NCBI GenBank assembly: GCA_019244185.1
Contig: JAFATB010000023.1
Span: 32,001 to 96,000, forward strand
DNA: 64,000 nt
Reading direction: 5' to 3'
Origin: Acidobacteriota bacterium
Lineage (GTDB): Bacteria; Acidobacteriota; Thermoanaerobaculia; Gp7-AA8
Part shown: positions 5,414-13,766 of the stretch, piece by piece
Layout: the number at the start of each line of letters is the position of its first letter
Position numbering within the stretch: the stretch's first letter is position 1
Notes under the pieces: model-generated
Told to the model about the DNA's origin: nothing
Database searches by the model: none
The model's input: the letters and a program-made list of their open reading frames with translations, nothing else
Program-made: the position numbers and the translations under genes

Positions 5414-5508
5414 CGGAGGCGTGTCGGAATCGAACCAACCTTTCGACGCTTCCGCGCCGAAACAACGGTTTTGAAGACCGCGGGAGCCACCAGACCCCAT
5501 TCGCCTCC
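5414..5508 (-). tRNA. selC: tRNA-Sec (UCA)
   Basis: GGAGGCGAATGGGGTCTGGTGGCTCCCGCGGTCTTCAAAACCG...GGTTCGATTCC...CGCCTCCG. UCA anticodon, long variable arm, extended D-stem, ~95 nt. Followed by CCG rather than CCA. Confidence 0.95.
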
Positions 5509-5582: not shown

Positions 5583-6516
5583 GTGGTGTTGGCGACGGTA
5601 GGTGCGGGGGTCGTGGCGTTTCTCGTGTTCGCGGCGGTGTTACGCCAGCCGGTGCTCTCCGCGCCGCGGTATGGAGGTGCGCGTGCGAGCGCGGAGGTGC
5701 TTCGTCAACACGTTGACTTTCTGGCGAAGAGCGTGTTGCCGCGGAGTGCGGCGCATCCGGAGAACCTCGATCGCGCGGCGGCGTACATCGCGGACGCGTT
5801 TCGACGCGCGGGTGCGGAGGTCGTGGAGCAACCGTTCCGCGCGCGCGGACGCGTGTCCCGCAACGTCATCGCGCGGTTCGGACCGCGCGATGCGCGGCAG
5901 CCGCTGCTCGTGGTCGGCGCGCACTACGACGCGTTCGGCGAGACGGGCGCGCTGCCCGGCGCCGACGACAACGCGAGCGGCACCGCGGGTCTCCTCGAGC
6001 TCGCCCGCATCCTCCGCGACTCCAACGTGCACGCGCCCGTGGAGCTCGTCGCCTTCACGACGGAAGAGCCGCCGTTCTTCGGCTCGGAGGAGATGGGAAG
6101 CGCGGTCCACGCCGCGTCGCTTGCGGGACGACCGGTGCGCGGCATGATCAGTCTGGAGATGATCGGCGTCTTCTCTGGCGAGCAGACGTGGCCATCGCCG
6201 CTCTTCGCGTGGCTCTACACCGATCGGAGCGACTTCATCGCCGTCGCCGGCGGCTGGTCGGATCGCGCGCTTGCGCGTCAGGTGAAGCGCGGCATCCGCG
6301 GCGTGGGCGGCGTCGACGTCTACTCGTTCAGCGGTGCGCGAGAACTGTCCGACGCTTCCGACCAGCGCAGCCACTGGGCGCGCGGCTGGACGGCGGTCAT
6401 CGTCACCGACACCGAGTACCTGCGCAATCCGCGCTACCACACGAACCGCGACACCGCGGAGACGCTCGACTACGCGTTGATGGCGCGCGTTGTCGACGGC
6501 GTCGCGAACGCGGTCA

Positions 6517-6536
<20 letters not shown>
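5583..6536 (+). CDS. M28 family metallopeptidase
   Basis: VGAHYD, GADDNASG, TTEEPP and SDQ motifs; N-terminal hydrophobic anchor. Confidence 0.9.
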
Positions 6537-6939
<403 letters not shown>

Positions 6940-6947
6940 GTCGCCTC

Positions 6948-7394
6948 CTACTGCCCGCCGCCGGCCATCTGCCTGCCCGCCATCTGGTTCTCGGTGAGGA
7001 TTGCCACGCCGCGGAACTCCGCCGCGTTCGCCGCGCGCATCACCGTGCGGATCTTCCCGAAGTTAATGCGCTTGTCCGCTTTGAGCAGCACCGCGCGCGT
7101 CGGGTCCTTCTGATATTCGGCTCGCAGATACGTGTCGAGCTGTTTGTCGGGAATCCAGTTCTGGCCGACGAAGACCGTGCCGTCCGACTTCACGGAGATG
7201 ATCAGATCGCTCGGCTGCCCCGGCTTCTTCTCGGCGTGCGGACCCGCGGGCAGCAACACGTCGACGCCCTGCTGCAGCATGGGCGTGACGACCATAAAGA
7301 TGATGAGCAGCACGAGGCAGACGTCGACGAGCGGCGTGACGTTGATCTCGCTCCTGACTTCGTCGGGGCTTCCGCCGCCGGCTCCGAATGCCAT
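6948..7394 (-). CDS. ExbD/TolR biopolymer transport protein
   Basis: SEINVTPLVDVCLVLLIIFMVVTP. Confidence 0.93.
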   Translation of the reverse strand: MAFGAGGGSPDEVRSEINVTPLVDVCLVLLIIFMVVTPMLQQGVDVLLPAGPHAEKKPGQPSDLIISVKSDGTVFVGQNWIPDKQLDTYLRAEYQKDPTRAVLLKADKRINFGKIRTVMRAANAAEFRGVAILTENQMAGRQMAGGGQ

Positions 7395-7403
7395 CGCTCG
7401 CTC

Positions 7404-8117
7404 CTACGTCGTGGCCCGCGCCCGCGCGCGCGCTTCGTTCTTGATGAAGTAGTCGATCAGCTGCGACGAGGAGTTCGACATCTCGACCTGGAATCGCTCG
7501 ACCTTGTTGAGGAAGTAGTTGTACATCCACACCGCGGGCACGGCGACGAAGAGGCCGAGCGCGGTCGTCGCGAGCGCTTCCGCGATGCCGGCCGACACGG
7601 CGCCAAGACCGCCCGAGCCGGAGATGGCCATGCCGCGGAACGCGTTGATGATGCCGATGACGGTGCCGAAGAGACCGACGAACGGCGCGGTCGTCGAGAT
7701 CGTGGCGAGGTTGCCGAGGCCTTTCTTCATCTCCGCCGTCGTCATCAGCGTCTCACGCTCGATCGCCCTCTTTCCCGACTCGACGATGTCGAAGTCCTCG
7801 GGGAGCTCCTGCGACGACTGATACTGAAACTCCGTGAGGCCCGCCGACAGCACGCGCGCGAGGTGGCTGTGGCGGAAGCGGCGGTCCTTCGTGAAGTTGA
7901 TCGCCTGATCGAGCTTGTGATCGCGCAGCAGAGGCGTGACGCCGAGGGCGACCTGCAGCGACTCTTTCTTCGCGCGCTGGAAGCGCCACAGACGCTCGAC
8001 CGCGATCGTGAGCGACCAGATCGACATGAGGAGCAAGACCGACGCGACGCCCTTGCCCAGCAGCGTCATCGACTGCCACATGCCCAAGATACTGAAACTG
8101 GCGTCCATCCCTTCCAT
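7404..8117 (-). CDS. MotA/TolQ/ExbB proton channel protein
   Basis: LATISTTAPFVGLFGTV, GIAEALATTALGL. Start reassigned to the ATG after a GAGGAG RBS. Confidence 0.93.
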   Translation of the reverse strand: MEGMDASFSILGMWQSMTLLGKGVASVLLLMSIWSLTIAVERLWRFQRAKKESLQVALGVTPLLRDHKLDQAINFTKDRRFRHSHLARVLSAGLTEFQYQSSQELPEDFDIVESGKRAIERETLMTTAEMKKGLGNLATISTTAPFVGLFGTVIGIINAFRGMAISGSGGLGAVSAGIAEALATTALGLFVAVPAVWMYNYFLNKVERFQVEMSNSSSQLIDYFIKNEARARARATT

Positions 8118-8134
8118 GCTGCACGTCTCCTCTG

Positions 8135-8923
8135 CTATTCGATTTTGAAGTTGATCGTGAGGTTGTAATACACCGGCACCGCCTGTCCGTTGAGCGTGCC
8201 CGGTCTGAACTTCCACTGCCGCAGCGCGTTGAGCGCCGTTTCATCGAGCCCCATCCCAAGACTCTTGAGGATGCGCGCCTCGGTCACGTTGCCGTTGCGA
8301 TCGATGACCGCCTCGATGATCACGAATCCCTGCACGCGCGCACGCCGCGCGACGTCCGTATACAACGGATCTACGCGTTTGACGATCACCGGCGCCTTGA
8401 CGTTCCCTCCGACGCGCACCGGGACGTCGCCGGTGCCGCCGACCTGGCCGCCCAACTGCCCGCCGAGCTGACCGCCGACCACGCCGCCGACGACACCACC
8501 CACCACGCCACCGACGACGCCACCTTCGACGCCGCCGACCACGCCGCCTTCCACGCCGCCGGTCGTGTCGGTGTCGGCGGAGGTCTCGGGGACGTCGGGC
8601 ACGTCCTGCGGGACTTCGGTCGGCTGCCGGAACGTCGGCTGCTTCGGCGTCTCGTGCGGCGTCTCGACTTTCGGTTTCGGATGCGAGGCGCCCGACGCGG
8701 GGGCGGGCGGCGGCGGGGGTGGAGGCGGCGGTGGGGGCGCGGAGGTGACGATGAACGCCGCGATCGGTTTCTCGACGGTCTCGGGATGCTCGTGAACGTA
8801 CATCCCCGCCGCCACGACGGCGCCGACGATGCCGAGGTGAATGACCGCGGAAATCACGGCGGTGATCCACCCGCCCTTCTTCTTGTCTTTCCCCGCGGAT
8901 TCGATGAGCACATCGTCGAACAT
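8135..8923 (-). CDS. tonB: Energy transducer TonB
   Basis: N-terminal TM with SAVIH, poly-Pro, GGVEGGVVGG repeats, C-terminal TonB domain (ALRQWKFRPG). Start at MFDDVLIES. Confidence 0.92.
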   Translation of the reverse strand: MFDDVLIESAGKDKKKGGWITAVISAVIHLGIVGAVVAAGMYVHEHPETVEKPIAAFIVTSAPPPPPPPPPPPAPASGASHPKPKVETPHETPKQPTFRQPTEVPQDVPDVPETSADTDTTGGVEGGVVGGVEGGVVGGVVGGVVGGVVGGQLGGQLGGQVGGTGDVPVRVGGNVKAPVIVKRVDPLYTDVARRARVQGFVIIEAVIDRNGNVTEARILKSLGMGLDETALNALRQWKFRPGTLNGQAVPVYYNLTINFKIE

Positions 8924-8958
8924 CGCGAATCCCCTTTGTTTCGAGGACAACGGCCTGT

Positions 8959-8973
8959 GCTGAAGTAGTGCCA
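8959..8973 (-). promoter_or_regulatory. Possible sigma54 -24/-12 promoter of the tonB-exbBDD operon
   Basis: TGGCACTACTTCAGC fits GG-N10-GC with a perfect TGGCAC. Confidence 0.5.
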
Positions 8974-9024
8974 AACGGTTCGACACCGCCCGCTCGCGGG
9001 GAGAAACCGGCGCCGGCGTTGCCG

Positions 9025-9750
9025 TTACGGGCGGTTCGCCGCCCGCAGCAAGGCGAGGAAGCGCTGCGCGTCGCGCACGCGCGGGACGTTGTTGAACATG
9101 ACGTAGGTCTCGGGCGTCCGCGGCAGCCGCGCGATGAGCGTCCGCAGCTCGTCGTCCGTGTAGACGTGATACGCGTTCCCGATGCCGTGCAGCCGCCAGT
9201 AGGTGAGCGGCTGCTCGATCGCGTCGCGGTCGAACGGATCGACGACATGCGTCAGCGCGAGCTCGCCGCAGAGTTCCGCGATCAGCTCCTGCGGCCACGG
9301 CCCGCGCGGCTCCCACAGGAACCGCACGCCGTCCGGACGCTCGACGTTCGTAAAGAAGCGTCGCAGGTTTACGACGTTCGCGTCTTCCGCGCGAAAACTC
9401 GCCGGACATTGAAAGAGAATCGCCGTCGCGCGCAGGATCCGCGCCGCCTCGACGGTCGAGTCCCACGCGCGCCGCAGAATGGGCGTCCATTGAAAGCCGC
9501 CGCATTGTGCGCGCTCGTCGTCATTGAGCGGCGTGCGCAGACGCCGATAAGTGCGGCTTGACGAGCGATGCGTAATGAGCTGCCAAGCCTTGATCGTGAA
9601 TTCGAACCCTTCCGGCGCCTGCTCCCGCCACCGGAGCATGGTGCGCGGCGCGGGCGGCTCATAAAACGTCTGCTGCACTTCGACGAGTGGGAAGGTCTCG
9701 AAGTAGTCGCGGATGTTCATGGTGAAGCCGCAGAGGCCGACTTTGATCAT
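9025..9750 (-). CDS. DUF72 domain protein
   Basis: YFETFPLVEVQQTFY, FEFTIKAWQLITH, LFQCPASF, YVMFNN. Confidence 0.9.
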   Translation of the reverse strand: MIKVGLCGFTMNIRDYFETFPLVEVQQTFYEPPAPRTMLRWREQAPEGFEFTIKAWQLITHRSSSRTYRRLRTPLNDDERAQCGGFQWTPILRRAWDSTVEAARILRATAILFQCPASFRAEDANVVNLRRFFTNVERPDGVRFLWEPRGPWPQELIAELCGELALTHVVDPFDRDAIEQPLTYWRLHGIGNAYHVYTDDELRTLIARLPRTPETYVMFNNVPRVRDAQRFLALLRAANRP

Positions 9751-9862: not shown

Positions 9863-9939
9863 TGGTGGAGCCGATGAGGATCGAACTCACGACCTCCTGA
9901 ATGCCATTCAGGCGCTCTCCCAAACTGAGCTACGGCCCC
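9863..9939 (-). tRNA. tRNA-Ala (GGC)
   Basis: GGGGCCGTAGCTCAGTTTGGGAGAGCGCCTGAATGGCATTCAGG...GTTCGATC...GGCTCCACCA. Confidence 0.97.
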
Positions 9940-10221: not shown

Positions 10222-10500
10222 ATGGATGAACAGGAACCGTTGCACCCGGCCATCCGCGGTCTGAAGACCGTCTGCCGCTGCAACAACATCAAATACCGCA
10301 CGATCGAGCGGGCCATCCGCGAGGGAGCGCACACGCTGACGCAGGTCGCGAACCGCACCACCGCCACGATGGGCGAGTGCGGCGGCTCCTGCACGCCGGA
10401 CGTTCAGGCCATGCTCGACGAGCTGGCCCCCGCGTATACGCAACTCCCGAAAGCCGCCCCGGCGGCAAATCCGGATGCATGGTGGGTACGGAAGAAATGA
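10222..10500 (+). CDS. BFD-like [2Fe-2S]-binding protein
   Basis: VCRCNNI...ATMGECGGSC. Start reassigned because the longer ORF overlaps the tRNA. Confidence 0.85.
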   Translation: MDEQEPLHPAIRGLKTVCRCNNIKYRTIERAIREGAHTLTQVANRTTATMGECGGSCTPDVQAMLDELAPAYTQLPKAAPAANPDAWWVRKK

Positions 10501-10841
10501 CGAAAACTCTCGAGGTCTACCTCAAGCCTTCCTGAACGAGCTGCCGCAAGGCGGTGGCCGACCTGGAAGGTCGGGGATACGAACTGGTGAAGCACAACCT
10601 CGCGAACGACCGCCCGAGCCGCGAGCTCCTCGCGCGCCTCATCGACGAGCACGGACTCGACTCCGTGATGAACGCGCGCAGCCCCGCCTTCAAAGCCCGC
10701 AACCTCGGCGAGCGGAAGCTGGACAAGGCGGAAGCGATCGCGCTGATGCTCGAGGATCCGAACCTCATCCGGAGGCCGCTCGTCCTCGGCAAGCGCCGCG
10801 TCGTCTTCGGTCACAAGCCGGAGGAGTACGACGGCCTGTGA
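10497..10841 (+). CDS. ArsC/Spx-family selenoprotein (UxxC), Sec TGA at 10533-10535
   Basis: ATG overlaps the upstream stop (ATGA). MTKTLEVYLKPS-U-TSCRKA is in frame with the downstream ...MLEDPNLIRRPLV... and matches the family PSCTSCRKA motif. Confidence 0.9.
10558..10574 (+). promoter_or_regulatory. Candidate SECIS hairpin
   Basis: CCGACCT-GGA-AGGTCGG. The loop starts with G 29 nt after the UGA. A second hairpin lies at 10540-10558. Confidence 0.6.
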
Positions 10842-11110
10842 CGATGATTACGCCGTCGGCGATGGCCATCGCCACGATCACGGTGATGCTCTGGATCGTC
10901 TGGAGCGACACGATCCGCGCGAAGCGGCCCGCGCCGATCCTCTACGCGGTGCGCGTGGCGCTGTATCTCATCGTCACCGGGCTCTTGATCCTGAACCTCG
11001 TGCGCTACCCGCGGCTGTACAGCAGCGGCGCGCGCGCCGTTACCATCGTGGCCGCTTTGACCGGCCTCGTCGGTGCAGTGTATTTCGCACGGAGGCTCGT
11101 AAAGCGTTAG
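10838..11110 (+). CDS. Small 3-TM membrane protein, hypothetical
   Basis: GTGA overlap with the upstream stop (alternative ATG at 10844); three hydrophobic segments. Confidence 0.75.
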   Translation: MTMITPSAMAIATITVMLWIVWSDTIRAKRPAPILYAVRVALYLIVTGLLILNLVRYPRLYSSGARAVTIVAALTGLVGAVYFARRLVKR

Positions 11111-11154
11111 TTGTGTGGAAATGGAAACCTTTCCGAGTCTTAGTTCCGTATCAG

Positions 11155-11183
11155 TAGACAGTGCGGAAAAAATGCACTATGAT
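11155..11183 (+). promoter_or_regulatory. sigma70 promoter
   Basis: TAGACA-N17-TATGAT; predicted +1 near 11190. Confidence 0.75.
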
Positions 11184-11189
11184 GCTTCT

Positions 11190-11323
11190 GGGTTCGGTGA
11201 GGGTTGGCAGCTCTCCGAAGCGGATCTGACGAAGTCGCGGGGCCTGCGAATCTCTCTCTCTCGATCTCCCACGACGATACGGCTACCCACAAGCCGTCCT
11301 AGCGTCGATCCTCGGCCGGACCC
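11190..11323 (+). ncRNA. Putative structured small RNA, family unassigned (6S-like possible)
   Basis: 5' GGGTTCGGT-GAGGGTTGGC pairs with 3' GTCGATCCTC-G-GCCGGACCC. Three internal hairpins. Has its own promoter and terminator. Confidence 0.7.
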
Positions 11324-11343
11324 ACTTTTTTGCTGATGATTCG

Positions 11344-11371
11344 GAGCCGCGATTCTCGCGGCTCTTTTTTT
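11344..11371 (+). terminator. Intrinsic terminator
   Basis: GAGCCGCGA-TTC-TCGCGGCTC followed by T7. Confidence 0.88.
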
Positions 11372-11420
11372 CCTCCACGGAGCGCGGCTCCTGTCCGTTT
11401 TGCGACAATCCCCCCGTTTC

Positions 11421-13766
11421 ATGCCGCTTCTCCTTCATTCACTCGCCGCGCTCGCGCTCGTCGGTCTCGCGCATCGCTTCGTGCGCCCGCTCTCGCGCGG
11501 CGCGGCGCTCGTCCTCTTCGCGCTGCCGTTCGTCATCGCCGGCTACGCGCTTCTGACCTCGCGCGTCCTCGCGCCGGTCGACCTCGCGTATCAGACCGTG
11601 CCGCTCAACTGGATGAAGGAGACGTACGGCGTCAGCGACGTGAGCACCGGACTGCACAGCGACGTGCTGTCGCAGTTCATCCCGTGGCGCGCGGCCGTGC
11701 GCGACTCGCTCGCACGCGGCGAGTGGGGCCTCTGGAACCGCTACGCCTTCGCGGGCGACATCCTGCTCGCGGGCGAGCAGCCGGCGGTCTTCTCGCCGAT
11801 CACGCTCCTCGCGTGTCTGCTGCCCGCGGCGCTGAGCTTCACCTTCACCGGCGCGCTGACGCTCTTCATCGCCGCGCTCTGCGCGTTCCTCCTCGCGCGC
11901 GAACTCGATTGCGGCGAGCCGGCGGCGCTCGTCGCCGCGGCGTCGTGGTCGCTCGCGACCTCGCTCGTCGTCTTCGTACTCGTGCCGCTCGGCGCGACGT
12001 GGGCGTGGGCGCCGCTGCTGTTCGTGAGCGTCCAGCGTCTCGTGCGCGCGCCGCGCATCGCCTCCGCCGCGCTGCTCGCGTTCACGTTCACTGCATTGCT
12101 CGCGGCCGCGCATCTCGAATCCGTGTTGCTCATCGTCGCATTGGGCGTCGCGTACGCGCTGCTCGAGCTCGCGCGGCGGCCGTCGGTACGCGCGGTCGCG
12201 CTCGCGGCGGGCGCGGGCGTCGTCGCGCTGCTCGTTTCGGCCGTGCATCTCCTGCCGTTCTTCGAGGCGCTGCCGTGGACGATGGAGTACGCGACGCGCG
12301 ACCTGTTCCGCGACTCGGCGCGCGGCGTGCCGCTGCCCGACGCCGCGCTGCGGATGCTGATGACGTTCTTCCCGTACCTCAACGGACGGCCGCCGGTGAC
12401 GTCGTTCATGAACGGCGCGATCGGCAGCATTGCCACCGCGCTCGCGCTGTACGCGCTGTGGCGCGTGCGCTCGCGCGCGACGTGGTTCTTCGGCGCGACG
12501 TTCCTCGCCTGTCTCGTCATCGCGTCGGAATGGCGTCCCGTCGCGACGCTGCTCGGGCGTGTGCCGCTCTTCGACATCGCCATCTTCGACCGCATGGCCT
12601 TTGGCGCCGCGCTATCGCTGGCCGTGCTCGCCGCGCTCGGCGCCGAAGCGCTCGCGCGGCGCGGCGGCGATCGCGCGGCGGGCGCGACGCTCGCGGCGTG
12701 GTTCGTCGTCGTCGCCGCCGGCAACTACGCGTTGCTGCACGCGGCGTCCGTTCCGCGCGGTCCGGTGAAATTCGGCGAGCACGTTGTCGCCGCAGAGCTC
12801 GTGCCGCTCGCGTTCGCAGCGGCGCTGTTGTTTCGCAAACGTGCCGCGCTGCCCGCGCTGCTCGCGCTCATCATCGTGCAGCGCTGGCTCGCGGTCAGCG
12901 ACGCGCAGAAGTCGTTTCCGCGTCGCGCTGCCTATCCGCCGATCCCGATCCTCGAACCGCTGCGCGCGATCCGCACGCCGTTCCGCATCGTCGGCCACGG
13001 CAACGCGCTCATCCCCGGCACGGCCACGCTGTACGGACTCGAAGACGCGCGCGGCTACTCGGCGATGACGCTGCTGCGCTACCGCGAAACGTACGGCCTG
13101 TGGTGCGTCGAACAGCCGGTGTGGTTCAACCGCGTCGACGATCTCTCGCGGCCGTTCCTCTCATTCCTCAACGTCCGCTACGCCATCACGTGGGACCGCG
13201 CGGTGCCGCCGCCGGGATGGACGGAAGTGGCGCGGCAGCGCGGCGCGATCCTGCTCGAGAACCACAACGCGCTCGATCGCGCCTTCGTGCCGCGCGGCGT
13301 GCACGTCGGCGCGAGCACGAACGTCACGCTGATGGAGATGGCGCTCGCCACCGACTTTGCCGACCGCGCGTGGATCGAGGCGAACGTTCCCGCGCCGTAC
13401 GACTCCGCGAACGGGCCGGGGCGGCTCACGATCGCTAACGCGCGCCTCGGCTACGCGATCGACGCGGACATGCAGAACGACGGCTGGATCGTGACGTCGA
13501 TCGCGGCGTGGCCCGGCTGGCGCGCGTACGTCGACGGCCGCCGCGTCGACACGAACATCGCCAATCATGCGTTCGTCTCGGTGCGCGTCCCGCGCGGACA
13601 TCACCGCGTCGCGCTGCGCTACTTTCCGGACGGCTTCGCGGTGGGAAGGACGATCAGCGCGGTGACGCTCGCGCTGATCGTCCTCGCGTCGCTACTGTTT
13701 CATCGCCGCAAGCCGCTTCTCGAGGCTGGCGATGCGGCCGTCGCTGCGCTGCCCCTCGGGGAGTGA
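11421..13766 (+). CDS. YfhO-family membrane protein (GT-C glycosyltransferase-like)
   Basis: QFIPWR...GEWGLWNRYAFAG, many TM helices, FLNVRY, C-terminal WPGWRAYVDG...VRVPRGHHRVALRY. Confidence 0.88.
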   Translation: MPLLLHSLAALALVGLAHRFVRPLSRGAALVLFALPFVIAGYALLTSRVLAPVDLAYQTVPLNWMKETYGVSDVSTGLHSDVLSQFIPWRAAVRDSLARGEWGLWNRYAFAGDILLAGEQPAVFSPITLLACLLPAALSFTFTGALTLFIAALCAFLLARELDCGEPAALVAAASWSLATSLVVFVLVPLGATWAWAPLLFVSVQRLVRAPRIASAALLAFTFTALLAAAHLESVLLIVALGVAYALLELARRPSVRAVALAAGAGVVALLVSAVHLLPFFEALPWTMEYATRDLFRDSARGVPLPDAALRMLMTFFPYLNGRPPVTSFMNGAIGSIATALALYALWRVRSRATWFFGATFLACLVIASEWRPVATLLGRVPLFDIAIFDRMAFGAALSLAVLAALGAEALARRGGDRAAGATLAAWFVVVAAGNYALLHAASVPRGPVKFGEHVVAAELVPLAFAAALLFRKRAALPALLALIIVQRWLAVSDAQKSFPRRAAYPPIPILEPLRAIRTPFRIVGHGNALIPGTATLYGLEDARGYSAMTLLRYRETYGLWCVEQPVWFNRVDDLSRPFLSFLNVRYAITWDRAVPPPGWTEVARQRGAILLENHNALDRAFVPRGVHVGASTNVTLMEMALATDFADRAWIEANVPAPYDSANGPGRLTIANARLGYAIDADMQNDGWIVTSIAAWPGWRAYVDGRRVDTNIANHAFVSVRVPRGHHRVALRYFPDGFAVGRTISAVTLALIVLASLLFHRRKPLLEAGDAAVAALPLGE

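Follow-up and report, generated by a model that had tools for sequence, protein, structure and literature searches.

A stand-alone structured small RNA gene in one family of uncultured soil Acidobacteriota

The window analysed here is a 64,000-nt stretch of the genome of an Acidobacteriota bacterium of the class Thermoanaerobaculia (assembly GCA_019244185.1, contig JAFATB010000023.1, positions 32,001 to 96,000), and its positions 11155-11371 on the + strand almost certainly hold the gene of a real stand-alone structured small RNA (sRNA). The gene has its own promoter, a conserved fold and paralogues in related genomes, and its RNA is present in environmental RNA libraries. The sRNA represents a new, unusually built RNA family of a broad and known kind, the bacterial small regulatory RNAs, and is confined to one family of uncultured soil Acidobacteriota. 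A sequence-only reading of the window had proposed a stand-alone structured RNA gene of unassigned family at this place, and the promoters found at 62 of 72 homologous copies, the covarying helices, the lack of any Rfam match to the core and the contigs from RNA libraries all agree with it. Our favoured account of its action, which we put at a little under even, is that of an uncatalogued structured sRNA that is made from its own promoter and would act in trans, mainly by pairing through the CU-rich loop of its third helix.

Few soil bacteria are more abundant than the Acidobacteriota, about whose RNA regulators, to our knowledge, hardly anything is known. A full-text literature search on non-coding RNA or sRNA of Thermoanaerobaculia found nothing relevant, and the portions available of the literature on structured and small RNAs of Acidobacteria held nothing describing the present sRNA. 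The table of annotated sRNAs in a 2022 review (PMC9029176) has four for all Acidobacteriota. With its promoter, covarying fold, paralogues, synteny and presence in RNA libraries the sRNA lends itself to being proposed as a new Rfam family. It can serve as a lineage marker transcript in soil metatranscriptomes, and it offers a way into post-transcriptional control among organisms without a cultured representative. Its long clamp, four-way junction and dinucleotide-repeat loop are unusual for a base-pairing sRNA, so that its mechanism could prove new.

Promoter, core and ends

A sigma-70-like promoter lies at 11155-11183 (+), with the -35 box TAGACA at 11155-11160, a 17-nt spacer and the -10 box TATGAT at 11178-11183. 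It matches the consensus at 10 of 12 positions and is the sole site of such quality within 10500-12000, where shuffled sequences predict 0.1. A -35/-10 pair at constant spacing to the RNA start is found at 62 of the 72 homologous copies, across genera; the secondary copies have the promoter TAGACA-17-TATATT.

The core structured RNA is 136 nt long (11190-11325, +), forms a four-way junction, and scores 147.5 bits with our covariance model. It begins with GGG at 11190 and ends ...GGACCCAC at 11325. Directly 3' of the closing stem the sequence has a U-run (11326-11331, +), followed by an intrinsic-terminator-like hairpin of 10 pairs, seven of them G-C (11343-11365), with a T-run to 11371 (11343-11371, +). 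Promoter, closing stem, internal hairpins, U-run and terminator had all been described in the sequence-only reading, and each was found where it had been placed. Among homologues within the window's genus conservation extends from the -10 box to the end of the closing stem, beyond which stand unrelated hairpins and T-runs. Terminator-like hairpins with T-runs follow 39 of the 72 copies, among them every primary copy in the genus, and the hairpin sequences differ. Transcription would start from the sigma-70-type promoter at or beside G11190, and the transcript would end either at the terminator (about 11371, giving about 180 nt) or, by trimming or termination, at the end of the closing stem (about 11325, giving about 136 nt).

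A 73-aa open reading frame (ORF; 11115-11336) overlaps the sRNA. Neither ORF that overlaps it has a Pfam match, and the homologues vary by 1- and 2-nt indels, including those of a CU tract that ranges from 5 to 24 nt, so the reading frame is not conserved. A coding role of the locus was thus ruled out, and the prediction that it has no credible ORF held.

An inverted repeat, ATGCA-N6-TGCAT, spans the -10 box in 16 of the 72 copies (L002, L005 and L007, for example) and may be an operator. In the window it is degenerate (11172-11189); a second copy was not found in the window's genome, and no regulon could be derived from it.

Fold of the RNA

Closing stem P1. The outer helix of about 19-22 bp pairs 11190-11208 with 11304-11323 and contains several G-U pairs. 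According to the minimum free energy (MFE) fold and to pair counts, its 5' strand includes a weaker GCU extension at 11210-11212 (whole strand 11190-11212, +), and its 3' strand (11301-11323, +) consists of AGC and GUCGAUCCUC, a bulged G, and GCCGGACCC. Across genera P1 keeps 19 bp, interrupted by one or two bulges, and a weak 3-bp extension.

Internal helices. P2 is the hairpin UCCG-AAG-CGGA (11214-11224, +), which in other genera takes the form UCCGAG-CGGGAA-CUUGGA, a 6-bp stem with a CGGGAA loop. The junction strand J2/3, UCUGACGAA (11225-11233, +), makes up with the last bases of P2 the near-invariant stretch GGAUCUGAC; the junction strand common to all genera is UCUGAC. P3 (11234-11275, +) has the stem GUCG.GGGG/UCCC.CGAC and the apical loop CCUGCGAA(UC)6GAUC, whose (UC)6 tract lies at 11251-11262; its form across genera is AGUCG.GGG/CCC.CGACU with the loop CCUGCGAA(UC)nGAUC. 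P4 (11279-11297, +), also seen in the MFE fold and pair counts, is the hairpin ACGGCU/AGCCGU with the loop ACCCACA, and across genera it keeps a stem of 6-7 bp while the stem sequence changes freely and the loop is variable yet C-rich. The apical loops of P3 and P4 are G-poor and C/U-rich in every genus.

The + strand folds at -54.6 kcal/mol, with a marginal z of -1.79 (9 of 200 shuffles were as good). As the single-sequence fold is only marginal, the case for more than chance rests on the comparative data and the metatranscriptome contigs. The RNA was assigned to the + strand because its frequent G-U pairs would be C-A on the opposite strand. The same strand had been read earlier from the G-U-rich stem, and rightly so: G-U pairs are common across the copies, and the minus strand folds no better than its shuffles (z = +0.23; 112 of 200 as good). 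A pseudoknot between GGAUC of J2/3 and GAUCU of the P3 loop was considered and dropped, genera with an altered junction showing no covariation for it.

Covariation and conserved letters

Three alignments were used. The first is a plain MAFFT alignment of 42 copies from the genus, on which the hand-drawn structure was tested by pair counts; the second holds 72 copies from 13 genera, realigned on a covariance model; the third holds 74 metagenome copies that were kept out of model building and aligned on the model. In the 42-copy alignment 91.7% of the cells are paired and 8 of the 40 pairs have changed on both sides (shuffles 0-4 of 500; best slid control 50.8%). The corresponding values are 94.0% and 31 of 40 pairs for the 72 copies (shuffles 0 of 500; best slid control 50.9%), and 94.3% and 20 of 40 for the 74 (shuffles 0 of 500; best slid control 49.3%). 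Two caveats apply to these counts: RNAalifold on the raw MAFFT alignment recovered no more than 21 pairs (covariation term -0.56), and the second and third alignments, being fitted to the model, lean towards it. Taken over about 146 copies, the predicted fold is supported by covariation.

The support is spread unevenly over the helices. The 19 main pairs of P1 are 94.5-96.8% paired, with changes on both sides in 14 of the 19 among the 72 copies, and its 3-pair GCU/AGC extension is merely 72-78% paired. P2 is 93-94% paired with scant covariation. P3 is 95-98% paired and P4 96-99%; among the 72 copies both-side changes occur in 7 of the 8 pairs of P3 and all 6 of P4, and the metagenome copies have them in 5 of the 6 P4 pairs.

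The most invariant letters are GGATC (GGAUC in the RNA) at the boundary of P2 and the junction, present in 42 of 42 genus copies. The wider alignment has GGAnCnGAC in 63 of its 72 copies and GGATCTGAC in 52. The motif CCTGCGA with the CU tract of the P3 loop, which is unpaired in the folds, occurs in 66 of 72 copies, with a tract length of 5-24 nt. Motif frequencies among the 74 metagenome copies are set by the search pattern and are therefore not taken as evidence.

Distribution of the RNA

The first covariance model was built from the 42 genus copies with the hand-drawn structure, and a second from the 72 copies of all 13 genera. Our genome tallies (for the genus, the family, the order, the bioY orthologues and the membrane-protein gene discussed below) include the unpublished genomes G002 and G024, and the last of these tallies also G206 and G166; the unpublished genomes are absent from every alignment and model.

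By blastn the element was found in 31 of the 34 other genomes of the same genus (29 of 32 when G002 and G024 are left aside), at 73-92% identity, and it was not found by blastn over 26 genomes of other genera. A genome can have up to four copies; the window's own genome has one by the covariance model. A class-wide sample gave model matches in 15 of 151 genomes, all from the window's family, and none in the 115 sampled genomes of the other 16 families of the class, searched with stricter filters. Within the family the RNA occurs in 59 of 124 genomes and 13 of 40 genera. The second model, run over the order, returned the same 59 genomes (59 of 127), with none in the three genomes of two other families.

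Sequence-pattern searches agree with the model. It confirmed 30 of 37 loci that matched the pattern; the seven unconfirmed are all in other phyla and are taken as chance matches because the model does not match them. More than 119 metagenome contigs matched the pattern, and of 80 loci listed among them 73 have a model match. One metagenome contig (L274) has tandem copies on the same strand, at 5902-6039 (137.9 bits) and 6256-6396 (57.7 bits), 217 nt apart. The metagenome-assembled genome (MAG) of 'Ca. Gilichinskyi gelida' carries two copies, a divergent one in the usual syntenic position (L205, 409-541, -; 34.9 bits), apparently lacking P4, and a well-conserved one elsewhere (L053, 1501-1647, -; 73.7 bits).

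Presence in RNA libraries

Parts of a 251-nt query that covers the sRNA are held by 24 sequencing runs from 22 studies, 13 of the runs being on record as RNA; the libraries come from soil, rhizosphere and sediment. The share of the query held by each run, 0.18-0.27, corresponds to the conserved core. In all four soil or plant RNA runs examined, contigs lie on the core only (11190-11273 or 11190-11299). The sequence-only reading had named a transcript as a check on the gene, and the 13 RNA runs and these core contigs point to one.

The size-fractionated soil library X9 gave a 113-nt contig of word depth 13,707 on 11197-11273, directly preceded by adapter-like letters. From X3 came a 160-nt contig of depth 93.7 that starts with adapter-like letters and one G, enters the core at 11190, and ends ...GGACCCACC, which is where P1 ends in a relative; its stop there is a weak hint of an RNA 3' end. 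The adapter-like letters we take to be Illumina adapter tails. A start at exactly 11190, as proposed from the promoter, agrees with where the X3 contig enters the core; to be set against it, the low-depth contigs of X1 and X6 (4.9 and 3.1) have 15 and 8 extra letters upstream, reaching into the -10 region. The X6 contig also extends 135 letters beyond 11299.

Contigs cannot establish the ends, strand or level of an RNA, and DNA may contaminate RNA libraries, which detracts from all of these observations; given both limits, we read the contigs as good evidence for an abundant core RNA in nature, with its ends merely hinted at. The flanks 11016-11169 and 11302-11455 gave no contigs, a result that is uninformative since the runs hold relatives with different flanks.

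Comparison with known RNA families

At gathering thresholds Rfam 15 finds only the tRNA-Sec and a tRNA in the whole window. A permissive scan of 11050-11450 (E up to 10) gave nine sub-threshold matches, none of which fits the core; the best, ncS54 with 22.1 bits against a cut-off of 43, lies on the terminator and off the core. Since no Rfam 15 family reaches its gathering score on the core, the family stays unassigned, as it had been when read from the letters.

The closest company is found among base-pairing sRNAs with C-rich loops, such as RsaE/RoxS of Firmicutes, the CcsR or 'cuckoo' CCUCCUCCC RNAs (RF02791), RepG of Helicobacter with its C/U-rich loop, and Yfr1 of cyanobacteria. Like them, the present RNA has its own promoter and terminator, G-poor and C/U-rich unpaired loops and paralogues within a genome, and its loops could occlude purine-rich ribosome-binding sites. 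Unlike them, it is larger, is shut by a clamp of 19-22 bp, has a covarying four-way junction and a dinucleotide-repeat loop of variable length, and shares no similarity with them in sequence or model; the CcsR1 model touches the terminator region only (11.7 bits against a cut-off of 65.3).

The marine IMES RNAs are environmental non-coding RNAs (ncRNAs) that are highly abundant in metatranscriptomes. The present RNA resembles them in its uncultured hosts, high depth in an RNA library and covariation-supported structure, and differs in habitat (soil, rhizosphere and sediment), lineage and fold, with no Rfam match. Acido-1 (RF01686) and Acido-Lenti-1 (RF01687) are given by Weinberg et al. 2010 (PMC2864571) as stand-alone ncRNA candidates from comparative genomics of Acidobacteria. 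As far as that description of them goes, the present RNA is likewise an acidobacterial candidate stand-alone ncRNA found by comparison; neither Rfam model matches it even at E up to 10, and it is restricted to one Thermoanaerobaculia family.

Proposed action and alternatives

The sRNA behaves as an independent unit that is not bound to one downstream gene. Copies stand at unrelated loci with their own promoters, two of them in tandem, the genes downstream vary, and in one genus the copies are inverted, and for these reasons we consider it probable that the RNA acts in trans rather than on its neighbours. The four-way junction, shut by the stem of about 19-22 bp, would present the two G-poor, C/U-rich apical loops of P3 and P4, with clamp and junction forming a stable scaffold. 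The CU-rich P3 loop, aided by the C-rich P4 loop, may then pair with purine-rich GA or Shine-Dalgarno-like (SD-like) stretches of mRNAs and so alter their translation or stability. Apical loops poor in G and rich in C and U are the mark of sRNAs whose partners are purine-rich ribosome-binding regions (RsaE/RoxS, CcsR, RepG), and pairing of this loop with GA-rich ribosome-binding sites, suggested in the sequence-only reading, is a plausible candidate and our leading mechanism. Taken by itself, base pairing through the CU loop is a tentative proposal, to which we lean somewhat less than to the account as a whole.

Candidate sites are at hand in the window's genome. Three 13-nt perfect complements to the loop lie just upstream of a start codon, and about nine genes have (GA)4-5 at SD spacing. 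Several results speak against pairing of the loop with mRNAs. Glu-Ile-Glu codons dominate the exact complements of the loop. The genome has 64 tracts of at least four GA repeats, of which 16 precede a plausible start codon, a weak excess over the 10 of 64 among the opposite-strand controls. No conserved target was found: three candidates were traced through the genus, and none proved conserved. The best of the candidates, an ABA4-like gene, is without an orthologue in any of the genus's 34 other genomes; the GA-rich site of bioY is kept in one of 30 orthologues; and the extended site before a PPC-domain gene is absent from all six other homologues inspected, four of them close orthologues. The 11 candidate target proteins have no common theme, and duplex energies of the whole loop with start regions are dominated by GC content and do not discriminate. 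The junction, with GGAUC in 42 of 42 genus copies, is more invariant than the CU loop, whose length drifts from 5 to 24 nt. An invariant junction, a drifting repeat and maintained helices would be at least as much in keeping with a fold that binds a protein or ligand.

In the genus many bioY genes (L207, L209, L210, L214, L215 and others) have the -10-like hexamer TATGCT some 7 nt ahead of the ATG and lack an SD sequence, which suggests leaderless mRNAs.

Protein binding. The sRNA may instead be a protein-binding RNA, either a sponge or a scaffold for a small ribonucleoprotein, in which the four-way junction with its GGAUCUGAC strand is recognised, the (CU)n tract titrates a pyrimidine-binding factor, or both. 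We regard this as rather unlikely, and it is the strongest of the alternatives. The letters best conserved are those of the junction (GGATC in 42 of 42 genus copies, GGAnCnGAC in 63 of 72), compensatory change maintains all four helices, and the repeat tract is tolerated over its whole drift of 5-24 nt. The word depth of 13,707 in one RNA library is very high, paralogous copies are known from sponge RNAs, and the failure to find a conserved mRNA target points the same way. Binders of the (CU)n tract would presumably be sought among cold-shock-domain proteins, ribosomal protein S1 and Rho, which has YC-binding sites. On the other side, no partner protein was found and no protein gene accompanies the secondary copies; the RNA exposes a single GGA where CsrB-type RNAs repeat their protein-binding motif; and apical loops rich in C and U classically mark a base-pairing sRNA.

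Likeness to the 16S 3' end. The 16S rRNA of the genus ends ...CCUGCGGCUGGAUCACCUCCUUUCU (L181-L185). We compared this end with the P3 loop of the window (11243-11270, CCUGCGAA(UC)nGAUC(A/U)CC). The loop shares with the 3' strand of helix 45 and the anti-SD tail the elements CCUGCG and GAUC(A)CC, in the same order, as well as a pyrimidine-rich, anti-SD-like character. It differs in that the spacing of the elements is 4 nt in one and 12-14 nt in the other, and GAUC is followed by a variable base and then by a CC(C) that belongs to the covarying P3 stem. The likeness was noticed after the fact and is an uncertain lead only. A bolder reading would make the sRNA a global regulator of a new class and of the rank of 6S or CsrB, whose CCUGCG...(CU)n...GAUC(A)CC loop mimics the 16S anti-SD tail, or a tract bound by Rho or cold-shock proteins, and titrates SD sequences or a pyrimidine-binding factor genome-wide; such a regulator might itself be under redox or iron control, as its fixed place after a BFD/Spx-like selenoprotein cluster would suggest. 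We judge it improbable.

A cis-acting leader. Arranged as promoter, junction-rich fold and terminator, followed on the same strand by a GT2 glycosyltransferase gene 42-83 nt past P1 in 17 loci or directly by YfhO in four, the element could be taken for a riboswitch- or attenuator-like leader that governs terminator read-through into GT2/YfhO, and its conserved junction nucleotides recall aptamer cores. We hold this very unlikely. The RNA scores high in at least eight loci where GT2 and YfhO are gone and a convergent TPR gene stands instead; secondary copies lie elsewhere, 18 of 72 copies lack the usual neighbour, and eight are inverted in one genus. A P1 of 19-22 bp is far too stable for a switching helix, neither spacer nor terminator is related to P1 in sequence and both vary from species to species, 33 of the 72 copies have no recognisable terminator, and one abundant contig stops at P1. 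It is on the varying downstream genes, the inverted and secondary copies, the clamp and the unrelated terminators that we set a leader or riboswitch aside.

6S and Y RNAs. The sequence-only reading had thought of a short 6S-like RNA, that is, one that binds the RNA polymerase holoenzyme as a mimic of an open promoter. The present RNA resembles 6S RNA (RF00013) as an abundant small RNA with its 5' and 3' ends paired shut by a long stem, and 6S too occurs in more than one copy in the genomes of some bacteria. That suggestion did not survive: no Rfam 6S or 6S-Flavo model matches even at E up to 10, the topology is a three-hairpin four-way junction with three compensated arms rather than a long irregular helix opened by a large central bubble and ending in a terminal stem, and the window's genome has its own canonical 6S RNA elsewhere (contig C2 of G000, 175196-175395, -; locus L166), with 65.1 bits against a cut-off of 46.4; we give a 6S role scarcely any credence. 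Least probable of all is a bacterial Y-RNA-like partner of the Ro (Rsr) protein, to which the topology, with a long closing stem, three arms that would make a cloverleaf-like module and a pyrimidine-rich loop, looks similar, since the window's genome (98.9% complete) has no match to the Ro/TROVE domain PF05731, which control genomes of Deinococcus and Bacteroides do have, no Rfam Y RNA matches, and the P4 loop is not T-loop-like.

Genomic neighbourhood

Upstream of the sRNA the window holds a tRNA-Sec (5415-5508, -; Rfam, 71.1 bits), a TonB/ExbB/ExbD/ExbD cluster (6520-9505, -) and a tRNA found by Rfam (9866-9939, -). Closer by, all on the + strand, are a BFD-like [2Fe-2S] gene (10222-10500), an ArsC/Spx-family gene (10497-10841) and, directly upstream of the sRNA, the gene of an 88-aa small membrane protein (10844-11110). 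These three genes form a conserved cluster, which most copies of the sRNA follow closely.

The membrane-protein gene is present almost throughout the family, in 107 of 124 genomes and in 38 of 40 genera, so that the sRNA appears as a patchy addition at a fixed site. The sRNA lies 65-211 nt beyond it on the same strand in 46 of the 72 copies; 18 copies, which are secondary or at loci with short flanks, are without this neighbour. In 19 RNA-negative genomes an unfiltered model search of the region 3' of the membrane-protein gene gave at most 18.2 bits, the exception being the 34.9-bit copy of the 'Ca. Gilichinskyi' MAG. Downstream of the sRNA a GT2 gene and then YfhO follow in 17 loci, YfhO follows directly in the window and three other loci, and at least eight loci have the convergent TPR gene.

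The remaining eight copies, all of a single genus, are inverted and end 7-17 nt from the stop codon of the membrane-protein gene, so that the 3' ends of the two transcripts may overlap. In that genus (L055-L058, L092-L095) the sRNA retains a promoter of its own, TTGnnn-17-TATAGT.

The sRNA had been described as lying between two selenoprotein loci, and the upstream one is borne out by the ArsC-family gene with its in-frame TGA together with the tRNA-Sec. The gene matches PF03960 with 69.8 bits when TGA is read as selenocysteine (U). The TGA (10533-10535) occupies the first Cys position of an N-terminal CxxC (..KPS-U-TSCRKA..); it is TGA in 34 of 35 distinct homologous loci, one of them from G002, and TGT (Cys) in one species. 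An ArsC-like gene with a conserved TGA is, by its sequence, the classic signature of a selenoprotein. With TonB-ExbBD and BFD as neighbours, the locus has an iron/redox character.

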